A stretch of 32,000 bases of DNA from Gemmata obscuriglobus (GTDB taxonomy: Bacteria > Planctomycetota > Planctomycetia > Gemmatales > Gemmataceae), in the NCBI RefSeq assembly GCF_008065095.1, contig NZ_CP042911.1, forward strand, positions 4,470,001-4,502,000, written 5' to 3'. A program made the position numbers and the translations under genes. Within the stretch, counting starts at the first letter, position 1, and each line of letters starts with the position of its first letter. The notes beneath the pieces are model-generated. The model made no database searches and was not told the origin of the DNA. It saw nothing but the letters and a program-made list of their open reading frames with translations. Shown piece after piece: positions 14,590-21,741 of this stretch.

Positions 14590-17500
14590 CTACCCGGCTT
14601 CCTTCTCGTTTTCCGTGTCGCCGAACGCGGACTTAAACGCCTTCAAGTGCTGCTTGAGGAGCGGCTTGAGCTTTGCGGGAGCGAATTGGTTCGCGGTAGC
14701 GAACCACACCTTCAGCACCTCGCTCCCGTCGGCGCGATCGCCCTCGACAAGGGCCTCGCGGCCCACGTTCTCGAACTGGGCCGGTTTCGCCGTCCCGCGA
14801 CGGCCGGTGAACCACACCTCCAGGGCGTCGGTTTCCTTTGTCTTGAGCCGCGCCCAGAATCGAGACGCGCCGGCCGGCCGCACCGTCACGGCGTCGCGGG
14901 TGTCCCACTTGAACTCCAGCGCCGGGTCGAGTTCCCGGAGCAGATCCAAGAGCTTCGGTAGCACGGCGCGGTCCCACTTCGCGCCCCGGCCGGGCGGGAA
15001 CCCTTTATCACCAAGGTGCCACTTCTCCCCGTCCTTCTTCCAGGGCATGTTGGCTTCCACGCCACCGGCTCCGGAGTCGTTCAAACCCTGAACAAGTTCC
15101 ACTGCCTTCTTCAGGAACTCGCGGAACGCGGGCGTATCGATCTCCGCCTTCTTGTGAACGGTGATCGTGACCGTCTGCCAGCCGGTCGTGTTCTGCACCT
15201 CGACGCGGTTGGCGTCGCGGGAGTACCCTTCGAGCCCCGGGGTGTCAGACAGGGGCGGGATCGCGAGTTTTGCCGCGAGCTGATCCTGTTTGAACGGGCG
15301 CCCCGGTAGCGGGAACACGAGCTTCATGTACGCCTCGTGCCCGGTCATTGCGTGGAGGAACCAGCCGTCGGCCTTCCGCGGCGCGGGGATCTCCACGACG
15401 CTGCGGTGGTTCCACTTCGTTTCGGGGAACGTGCCGGACTCGTGGATCAGGTCGATGACCCAGGCGAGCGCGGCGCCCTCCCACTTGACGGGCTTTCCGG
15501 TGGTGGTGACGCGGTCGCGGGTGTGCCACCCGGGGCCATCGGCCTCCCAGGGGAGCTTCTGCTCTTTGCCCACGTCCGAGATGTCGAGATCGCCGGCACG
15601 CTCCGCGAGGGCCGCGTGCGGATCGAACTTCGGGCGCGCCGCGAACGGCCCTGCGGCGATCACGTCCTTGAGGATGCGCCCGGTGTGCGTCGGGGCGCCG
15701 GCGGCGAACTGGGCCACCACCTCTTCCGGGGTGCCGGCGGCGACGACGTGCCCGCCGCCGCCGCCGGCCTCCGGCCCCATGTCGATGACCCAGTCCGCGG
15801 ACTTGATGACATCGACGTTGTGTTCCACCGTGATGACGGTGTTCCCCAGATCGACCAGGCGCTGAAGCACTTCGAGCAGCTTCCGCACGTCGTCGAAGTG
15901 CAGCCCGGTGGTCGGCTCGTCGAGCAGGTACAGCGTTTTGCCGGTGCTGGGGCGGGCCAGTTCCGCGGCGAGTTTCACGCGCTGCGCTTCGCCCCCGGAC
16001 ATGGTCGGCGCCGACTGGCCGAGTGACATGTACCCGAGGCCGACGTCTTCGAGCGTTTGCAGCACGACGCGGATCTTCGGGATGTTGTGGAACAGGGCCA
16101 GGGCCTCGCTGACGCGCATGGCGAGCACGTCGGCGATGCTCTTGCCGTGGTACCGCACCGCGAGCGTTTCCGGGTTGTAACGGGTGCCGTTACAGGTGTC
16201 GCACTCCACCCACACGTCGGGGAGGAAGTGCATCTCGATCACCTTCTGCCCCATCCCTTCGCACGCCTCGCACCGGCCTCCCTTCTGGTTGAAGGAGAAC
16301 CGCCGCGGGTGGTACCCGCGGACCTTCGACTCGGGGAGCCGGGCGAACAGCTCGCGGATCAGGTCGAACACGCCGGTGTAAGTCGCCGGGTTGCTCGACG
16401 GCGAGTTGCCGATGGGGTCCTGGTCGACGTTGATGATCTTGTCGATGTGTTCGAGGCCAACGATGTCGTCGTGCGCGGCCCCGGCGGTGCGGGCGCGGTG
16501 CAGCTTGCGCGCGAGGGTGTTGTAGAGCACCTCGTTCACCAGCGACGACTTCCCGGACCCGCTCACCCCGGTCACCGCGACGAGCGCCCCGAGCGGGATG
16601 TGTACGTCCACGTTCTGGAGGTTGTGCTGGCGGGCGCCCAGGATGCTAAGCGTGACCCCGTGCGGCGACCGCGCGGCGACGGTCTCCGACCCACTCCCAA
16701 CCCCTCGCTGCAGGGAGGGGAGCAGATCCACAACCGCACCCTGCGCGCCGGATTCGCGATTCGATTCCGACGTGCCTTTGCTCCCCCTCCTTGCAGGGAG
16801 GGGGCTGGGGGGTAGGTTGCCTTCCCCCGCCGTGCGCCGGTTCGTCGGAACCGGTATGGCGAGCTTTCCGCTCAGGTACTTCCCCGTGAGCGATTCTGCG
16901 GCCTTTGCAACCTGCTTCGGTGCGCCACTGGCGGTGATCTCGCCGCCGTGGTCTCCGGCCCCGGGGCCGAAATCGAGCAAGTGATCGGCCGCCGCGATCA
17001 CCTCGCGGTCGTGCTCGACCACGACGAGGGTGTTCCCGAGGTCGCGCAGCCGGTGCAGTGCCTGAAGGAGCCGCTCGTTGTCGCGCGGGTGCAGCCCGAT
17101 GGTCGGCTCGTCGAGGACGTACAGAACGCCCGTCAGCCCGCTGCCGATCTGCGACGCCAGCCGGATGCGCTGGGCCTCGCCGCCAGAGAGCGTCGGCCCC
17201 TGCCGGCCGAGCGTAAGGTAGTCCAGGCCCACGTCCACCATGAACTTGAGGCGCGAGCTGACCTCGCGGAGCACCTCGCCCGCGACCTTGCGGTCGGTCT
17301 TCGAGAGCGTGAGCGAGTCGAAGAGCGCGAGCGTGTCGCCGAGCGGCTTCGCGCACATCTCGCCGATGGTGAGGTTCGCGAACCGGGTCGCCGCGGCGTC
17401 GGCCCGGATGCGCGCACCGCGACAGGCGGAGCAGGGCACCTCATCCACCAAGTGATCGAGGCGCTGTCGGTACACCCAGGACACCCGCGACGCCTCGTCC

Positions 17501-21741: not shown

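Follow-up and report, generated by a model that had tools for sequence, protein, structure and literature searches.

The stretch of DNA considered here, hereafter the window, comprises 32,000 nucleotides (nt) of Gemmata obscuriglobus, a member of the Gemmataceae within the Planctomycetota (contig NZ_CP042911.1, positions 4,470,001 to 4,502,000). The window is rich in G+C, and at its centre, where the G+C content is about 0.68, lies a uvrA gene whose uninterrupted frame (14590..21741) holds, within 2383 amino acids (aa), two UvrA units, a linker between them and a C-terminal tail. A preliminary description of this DNA, made from the letters alone, had proposed a single in-frame fusion of two complete UvrA units, and this proposal is borne out, as the frame is uninterrupted and the junction contains neither a start nor a stop codon. 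The peptide strings quoted in that description are all present in the translation. The features of the gene that concern its two units are as follows.

14590 to 21741, minus strand: complete uvrA coding sequence of 2383 aa plus stop, with an ATG start, from the list of open reading frames (ORFs) and the translation
21751 to 21757, minus strand: GGAGGAG, a Shine-Dalgarno-like element 9 nt upstream of the ATG, identified as a sequence motif only
18814 to 21741, minus strand: UvrA unit 1, aa 1-976, from matches to NF001503, TIGR00630 and 9gxk and from motifs
21025 to 21345, minus strand: UvrB-interaction domain of unit 1, aa 133-239 (Pfam PF17760), also matched by the isolated UvrA interaction domain 3fpn
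20470 to 20805, minus strand: insertion (DNA-binding) domain of unit 1, aa 313-424 (Pfam PF17755)
18718 to 18813, minus strand: inter-unit linker, aa 977-1008 (about 32 aa), basic, with a pI of 11.6 and no start codon
15706 to 18717, minus strand: UvrA unit 2, aa 1009-2012, with the domain order of unit 1, from matches to NF001503 and 9gxk
18007 to 18327, minus strand: UvrB-interaction domain of unit 2, aa 1139-1245, the second PF17760 stretch, placed through the alignment of the two units
17452 to 17832, minus strand: insertion (DNA-binding) domain of unit 2, aa 1304-1430, the second PF17755 stretch, placed through the same alignment

For comparison with known families, the protein was scanned against NCBIfam in three pieces, with cut-offs of 1147 bits for NF001503, the UvrA equivalog, and 730 bits for TIGR00630. 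The preliminary description had expected a UvrA profile to match twice, and both models do so: NF001503 gives 1375 bits for aa 1-975 and 1277 bits for aa 1008-2012, and TIGR00630 gives 1325 bits for unit 1 and 1240 bits for unit 2, all above the respective cut-offs. The two units align with each other over their full length at 48% identity, and the solved class I UvrA 9gxk is matched end to end by each of them (1129 bits for unit 1 and 1063 bits for unit 2).

The order of domains is the same in the two units. In unit 1, the first nucleotide-binding domain (NBD-I), which includes the zinc module Zn1, the UvrB-binding domain, the zinc module Zn2 and the insertion domain, is followed by NBD-II with Zn3. 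A motif scan located four Walker A motifs (at aa 34, 666, 1040 and 1725), four Walker B motifs and four H-loops, together with ABC signatures that read LSGGE in three cases and MSGGE in the fourth. The claim of four intact ATP sites is upheld; only the statement that all four signatures read LSGGEAQR is not, as the fourth is MSGGEAQR. The same scan found twelve CxxC pairs, which form the six intact zinc modules that had been described, three per unit and at equivalent positions in both units; the cysteines of Zn1 are C123/C126 and C275/C278 in unit 1, and C1129/C1132 and C1266/C1269 in unit 2. PF17760 and PF17755 each match twice, so that a UvrB-binding domain and an insertion domain are present in both units, as was also proposed at the outset. 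On its sequence features, each unit thus proves to be a complete class I UvrA.

Each unit therefore shares the full layout of canonical class I UvrA (NF001503/TIGR00630; structures 2r6f, 3pih, 3zqj and 9gxk), but there are also differences. The window protein has two units per chain, a linker of about 32 aa and low-complexity inserts, and relative to the solved UvrA proteins it adds a duplicated tail of 371 aa.

At the junction between the units, a codon scan found no ATG, GTG or TTG between aa 965 and 1015, in agreement with the earlier statement that unit 2 has no start codon of its own; because of this lack, unit 2 is not translatable separately. The linker peptide is present and basic as first described, but its position had been given as nt 18721-18816, one codon off the actual 18718-18813. 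Its sequence is poorly kept, with a mean identity to the window protein of 0.20 among 24 Gemmataceae homologues, whereas the length of the segment spanning aa 970-1010 stays at 31-41 aa in 25 homologues. The linker thus appears to act like a fixed-length tether, in which the sequence varies and the length is constrained.

Other variable segments lie within the units themselves.

about 20926 to 21030, minus strand: acidic insert of unit 1, aa 238-272, with a length of 17-88 aa among relatives
about 17527 to 17628, minus strand: Lys-rich insert of unit 2, aa ~1372-1405, within the insertion domain, with a length of 16-68 aa among homologues
16642 to 16836, minus strand: low-complexity insert of unit 2 between NBD-I and NBD-II, aa 1636-1700, not found in solved UvrA by alignment

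A second acidic stretch of unit 1 spans aa 688-716, and the insert at aa 1636-1700 has a length of 12-67 aa and 28% identity among homologues. The unit-specific inserts noted previously, acidic in unit 1 and Lys-rich in unit 2, are therefore real; they are of low complexity, are poorly conserved and measure 12-88 aa among homologues. However, some of them had also been called repeat-derived, and this does not hold, as Tandem Repeats Finder gave only trivial short repeats in the gene. The inserts at aa 238-272, 1372-1405 and 1636-1700 appear to be hotspots of expansion and contraction at surface loops.

The two halves are conserved to nearly the same degree. Measured against the window protein, the 24 Gemmataceae homologues average an identity of 0.80 in unit 1 and 0.78 in unit 2. 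A wider comparison took in 20 diverse sequences, with Pirellulales as well as Gemmatales represented. All 20 keep, in both units, the Lys of Walker A, the Glu of Walker B, the Ser of the signature and the His of the H-loop, and the zinc cysteines are invariant except for a single substitution in one sequence. Per-domain entropies are likewise similar between the units, with the exception of the insertion domain (1.33 bits in unit 2 and 0.99 bits in unit 1). The units differ most from each other in the UvrB-binding and insertion domains, where their identity is 31-41%.

Degeneration of ATP sites occurs in many fused ABC proteins. In the present family there is no sign of degeneration at any ATP site, and both halves appear to be under equal purifying selection. 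Because the halves evolve equally slowly and the catalytic residues have not decayed, the fusion must be old and neither half is expendable. A lower bound on its age is given by orthologous units of Gemmata and Pirellulales, which are 62-65% identical; the two units of one chain share only 48%, so the duplication and fusion are older than the divergence of Gemmatales and Pirellulales. The double-unit arrangement is shown to be both ancient and phylum-wide.

The closest relative of the protein is the annotated "excinuclease ABC subunit UvrA" of Gemmata sp. JC673, with 98% identity over 100% of the length, and other full-length Gemmataceae homologues are 66-85% identical to the window protein. 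More than 120 full-length homologues of about 2300 aa are on record. Nearly all of the best 120 database matches fall between 2280 and 2420 aa and align with 99-100% of the query, the few shorter ones being flagged as partial; the named matches among them are UvrA of Gemmata, Fimbriiglobus, Limnoglobus, Urbifossiella or Gemmataceae. A scan for the motif of the C-terminal tail, using one genome per species, confirmed loci in the genomes of at least 585 species. Nearly all of these carry the label Planctomycetota, and the labels include Gemmatales (for example, Zavarzinella formosa), Pirellulales (Thermoguttaceae, Pirellulaceae and Kolteria) and Planctomycetales.

Some records from metagenome-assembled genomes (MAGs), namely the loci L017, L037, L046, L049, L052, L054 and L001 and the protein P0156, carry a Gemmataceae-like double UvrA under the titles Alcaligenaceae, Singulisphaera or Gemmatimonadales. 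As these proteins are so similar to the Gemmataceae ones, the odd labels are probably taxonomic mislabels or the result of bin contamination.

Continuity of the frame at the inter-unit junction, as claimed initially, was checked in 20 independent loci with a full 10-kb upstream flank, taken from isolates and MAGs of Gemmatales and Pirellulales. In 13 of these 20 assemblies the same uninterrupted frame is found: the tail-bearing frame is open over about 2290-2460 aa and contains four Walker A motifs and four signatures, and three of these loci (L072, L077 and L079) are from Pirellulales. Six loci have shorter frames, five of them from one MAG series (isolate names MFD...), which we suspect to be frameshift-prone; one of the six, L056, is nearly full-length, with only the first Walker A missing. 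The remaining locus is the shortened gene of Kolteria novifilia.

In the complete genome of Kolteria novifilia (CP036279, locus L076), the UvrA homologue is 1670 aa long (nt 6056-11065 of the locus) and aligns to aa 628-2374 of the window protein; it starts at NBD-II of unit 1 and contains unit 2 whole. No sequence like NBD-I of unit 1 was found within 6 kb upstream of this gene. The case shows that the first NBD-I is dispensable or relocated in at least one lineage, and the Kolteria gene is either a truncated variant or the product of a gene fission whose missing part lies elsewhere.

The novelty implied by the preliminary description does not hold: the architecture is a common form across Planctomycetota, is annotated as UvrA by NCBI and JGI, and has such annotations in hundreds of genomes. 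A fused UvrA is also reported explicitly for Tuwongella immobilis and relatives by Mahajan et al. (2021; PMC8567305, Fig. 13), where it was detected with UvrB, UvrC and UvrD in the proteome of T. immobilis and is regarded as the UvrA component of UvrABCD in planctomycetes. The window protein belongs to this same family with no essential difference; the accessible text of the paper does not describe the duplicated C-terminal tail. The double UvrA with its tail is therefore the standard UvrA form in Planctomycetota and is already known. No biochemical study of the fused UvrA surfaced in the literature searches, none of which was aimed directly at biochemistry, and no formal class name for duplicated UvrA turned up in the literature.

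A roughly double-length UvrA is likewise curated as NF001885/PRK00635, a model of 1809 positions for a long "excinuclease ABC subunit A". Since this model is curated, double-length UvrA is already a known category. The window protein is not a member of that family, however: scored separately, its units reach 735 and 637 bits, far below the cut-off of 3054, with alignments that in both cases lie in the model's first half. We take NF001885/PRK00635 to be the chlamydial UvrA.

The C-terminal tail was overlooked in the preliminary description.

14593 to 15705, minus strand: C-terminal tail of 371 aa, aa 2013-2383, with no match to described families
15070 to 15600, minus strand: tail repeat 1, aa 2048-2224, motif LPWEADGPGWH, from hhalign and the single-repeat model
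14611 to 15069, minus strand: tail repeat 2, aa 2225-2377, motif MPWKKDGEKWH, from hhalign and the two-repeat model

Comparison of the tail with Pfam, NCBIfam and PDB sequences gave no match. The tail is conserved: a diverse alignment contains 32 invariant columns, many of which hold Trp, His or Gly, and its mean identity to the window protein among the Gemmataceae homologues is 0.61. Each repeat opens with the motif PW-x-x-DG-x-x-WH, and hhalign aligns repeat 1 with repeat 2 at a probability of 97.7% (E = 1.7e-12), from which it follows that the tail consists of one domain, about 150-175 aa in length, duplicated in tandem. AlphaFold2 modelled the tail confidently, the single repeat with a predicted local distance difference test (pLDDT) of 91.5 and a predicted template modelling score (pTM) of 0.85, in the topology alpha-beta3-alpha-beta2-alpha; for the two repeats together the values are 87 and 0.52, and the low pTM makes their relative orientation uncertain.

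The predicted topology agrees with that of the type III secretion chaperone/YbjN-like fold, the members of which are usually dimers. Weak Foldseek matches of the two-repeat and single-repeat models recur among type III secretion chaperones, LAGLIDADG endonucleases, an ACT-like domain, Arp2/3 p34 and the DNA-binding domain at the C-terminus of MotA from phage T4, with chaperone/YbjN-like proteins (Spa15, SycE, SycH, YbjN and DR_1245) as the recurrent top matches to the tail repeats. The two tandem repeats would parallel the usual dimers of this fold. However, the repeats have no sequence similarity to it, and the matches are not significant (E >= 0.013, TM <= 0.46), so the modelled resemblance is a weak one and serves as a lead only. 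The idea of a DNA-binding saddle of the MotA/LAGLIDADG kind was considered for the tail and rejected, its support being no better than that of the chaperone-like lead.

A search with the tail against 1.84 billion representative proteins returned 658 matches, and the long ones that were inspected were all fragments of the UvrA-UvrA-tail architecture. No stand-alone or differently fused copy of the tail was found among the best 150 of these 658 matches, and in the loci checked the tail always occupies this C-terminal position. The tail seems to be an undescribed domain family that has no Pfam entry and is confined to Planctomycetota.

As regards the surroundings of the gene, Pfam detected no uvrB or uvrC in those ORFs of the window that reach 150 aa and were judged plausible genes, a set that leaves out shorter ORFs and some intergenic stretches; within this scope the earlier remark that neither gene lies nearby is correct. 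A scan for promoters and terminators gave nothing exceeding the shuffled expectation. The uvrA gene looks like an isolated housekeeping gene among the following neighbours.

581 to 1336, plus strand: ORF carrying the transposase domains DDE_Tnp_1 and DDE_Tnp_1_assoc, suggestive of an insertion sequence close to the window's left end
1831 to 5037, minus strand: ORF of 1068 aa with no Pfam match, downstream of the MoxR/DUF58/VWA set
5695 to 10382, minus strand: MoxR AAA ATPase, DUF58 protein and two VWA-domain proteins in a row, a Bat/MoxR-like arrangement
11927 to 14512: S9-peptidase-like ORF, weak match
22025 to 22762, divergent from uvrA: extracytoplasmic function (ECF) sigma factor
within 24000 to 32000: VIT-VWA protein, sugar-phosphate-isomerase-like TIM barrel, oxidoreductase, Ser/Thr kinase and AccA

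Across this last region, from 24000 to 32000, the G+C content falls from about 0.68 to 0.55-0.60.

Taken together, these features make it highly likely that the gene encodes the housekeeping damage sensor UvrA of nucleotide excision repair (NER) in Gemmata, in the form standard for its phylum, with two class I units in head-to-tail order, a flexible linker of about 32 aa between them and a two-copy tail behind them. The most likely mode of action of the protein is that of an intramolecular pseudo-dimer. Here we infer the intramolecular pairing, the function in NER and the role of the tail; the idea of a covalent pseudo-dimer, already put forward in the preliminary description, is a reasonable one. 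Units 1 and 2 would fold onto each other as the intramolecular counterpart of the UvrA2 dimer, so that one chain would supply all four ATPase sites, both UvrB-binding domains, both insertion domains, the zinc modules and the DNA-binding groove. Such a chain would scan DNA, recognise lesions and load UvrB as in the canonical pathway. The tail repeats probably pair with each other as a pseudo-dimeric module of their own, and the tail may provide a surface for docking or for regulation, with a protein or nucleic acid as the partner, which is the least certain point of the proposal.

Some observations weigh against this interpretation. The 1670-aa form in Kolteria means that the full double unit is not obligatory everywhere. 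In addition, Foldseek searches of the tail models against PDB and BFVD gave nothing with E < 1e-3 (the best values were about 1e-3 to 1e-2), and any role given to the tail is guesswork.

It might also be thought that the units pair between chains, either unit 1 with unit 2 or like with like; the 260-kDa chains would then assemble into dimers or filaments that contain at least four UvrA units. The linker is short, at about 32 aa, and the tail, should it resemble the type III secretion chaperones, which are homodimeric, could likewise join separate chains; indeed, such pairing is compatible with everything measured here. However, the constrained length of the linker and the strict co-conservation of the units fit 1:1 intramolecular pairing most simply, and the canonical protein functions as a dimer rather than as a tetramer. 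We therefore regard pairing between chains as rather unlikely.

A second alternative, which we hold to be just as improbable, is that the halves have become subfunctionalised, one unit sensing damage or loading UvrB and the other being regulatory, as in asymmetric ABC proteins with one degenerate ATP site. In its favour, the units are only 48% identical and have diverged most (31-41% identity) in the UvrB-binding and insertion domains; the insertion domain is also more variable in unit 2 than in unit 1 (1.33 vs 0.99 bits) and there carries a Lys-rich insert. The Kolteria protein, which lacks NBD-I of unit 1 and keeps unit 2 whole, mildly supports non-equivalence of the halves. Against these points, no decay of catalytic or zinc-binding residues is seen in either half among the orders sampled, the overall conservation of the units is equal, and both pass the equivalog threshold. 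The idea that the halves diverge in function is not supported, given their equal conservation and the invariance of the catalytic residues and, save for one substitution, of the zinc cysteines.

One could also suppose a specialised UvrA paralogue, class II-like and serving drug resistance or damage tolerance rather than NER, given the lack of uvrB and uvrC among the scanned window ORFs and the presence of an extra tail. The class II proteins (Deinococcus UvrA2, 2vf7; Ecm16, 7sh1; DrrC) are also zinc-module ABC-ATPase paralogues, but they are without Zn1 and the UvrB-binding domain (PMC9328131), both of which are kept in the two units of the window protein, and neither unit is a truncated class II paralogue, as had been maintained from the start. 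Furthermore, the class II structures score much lower (2vf7, 662 bits for unit 1 and 600 bits for unit 2; 7sh1, 469 and 448 bits) than the class I structure 9gxk, and PMC8567305 places the protein in the planctomycete UvrABCD system. The retained Zn1, the UvrB-binding domain and the structure scores effectively exclude this explanation, which is very improbable. That the fusion is an artefact of assembly or annotation merging two adjacent uvrA genes, a general possibility only, is effectively refuted by the continuous frame, with neither stop nor start codon at the junction, and by independent homologues and assemblies (the best 120 homologues, nearly all with 99-100% coverage, and the 13 of 20 assemblies that keep the frame), and it is almost certainly wrong.

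A natural single-chain UvrA of this kind is a practical tool, as its four ATP sites, its pair of UvrB-binding domains and its pair of insertion domains can be mutated one by one, which is impossible in a homodimer. Such independent mutagenesis bears on the question, still debated, of what the individual sites contribute to damage verification and UvrB loading. The same opportunity is already offered by many annotated planctomycete proteins, and in this sense the window adds no new kind of object.

A bolder proposal, which we consider unlikely, is that the tail is a planctomycete-specific pseudo-dimeric interaction module, with one repeat per UvrA unit, through which the fused protein is linked to some partner peculiar to the lineage or to the condensed planctomycete nucleoid. 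The initiation of NER in planctomycetes would then differ mechanistically from that by the textbook UvrA2B2, and the fusion would also permit asymmetric halves. The tail family might reveal a lineage-specific partner of the repair machinery.

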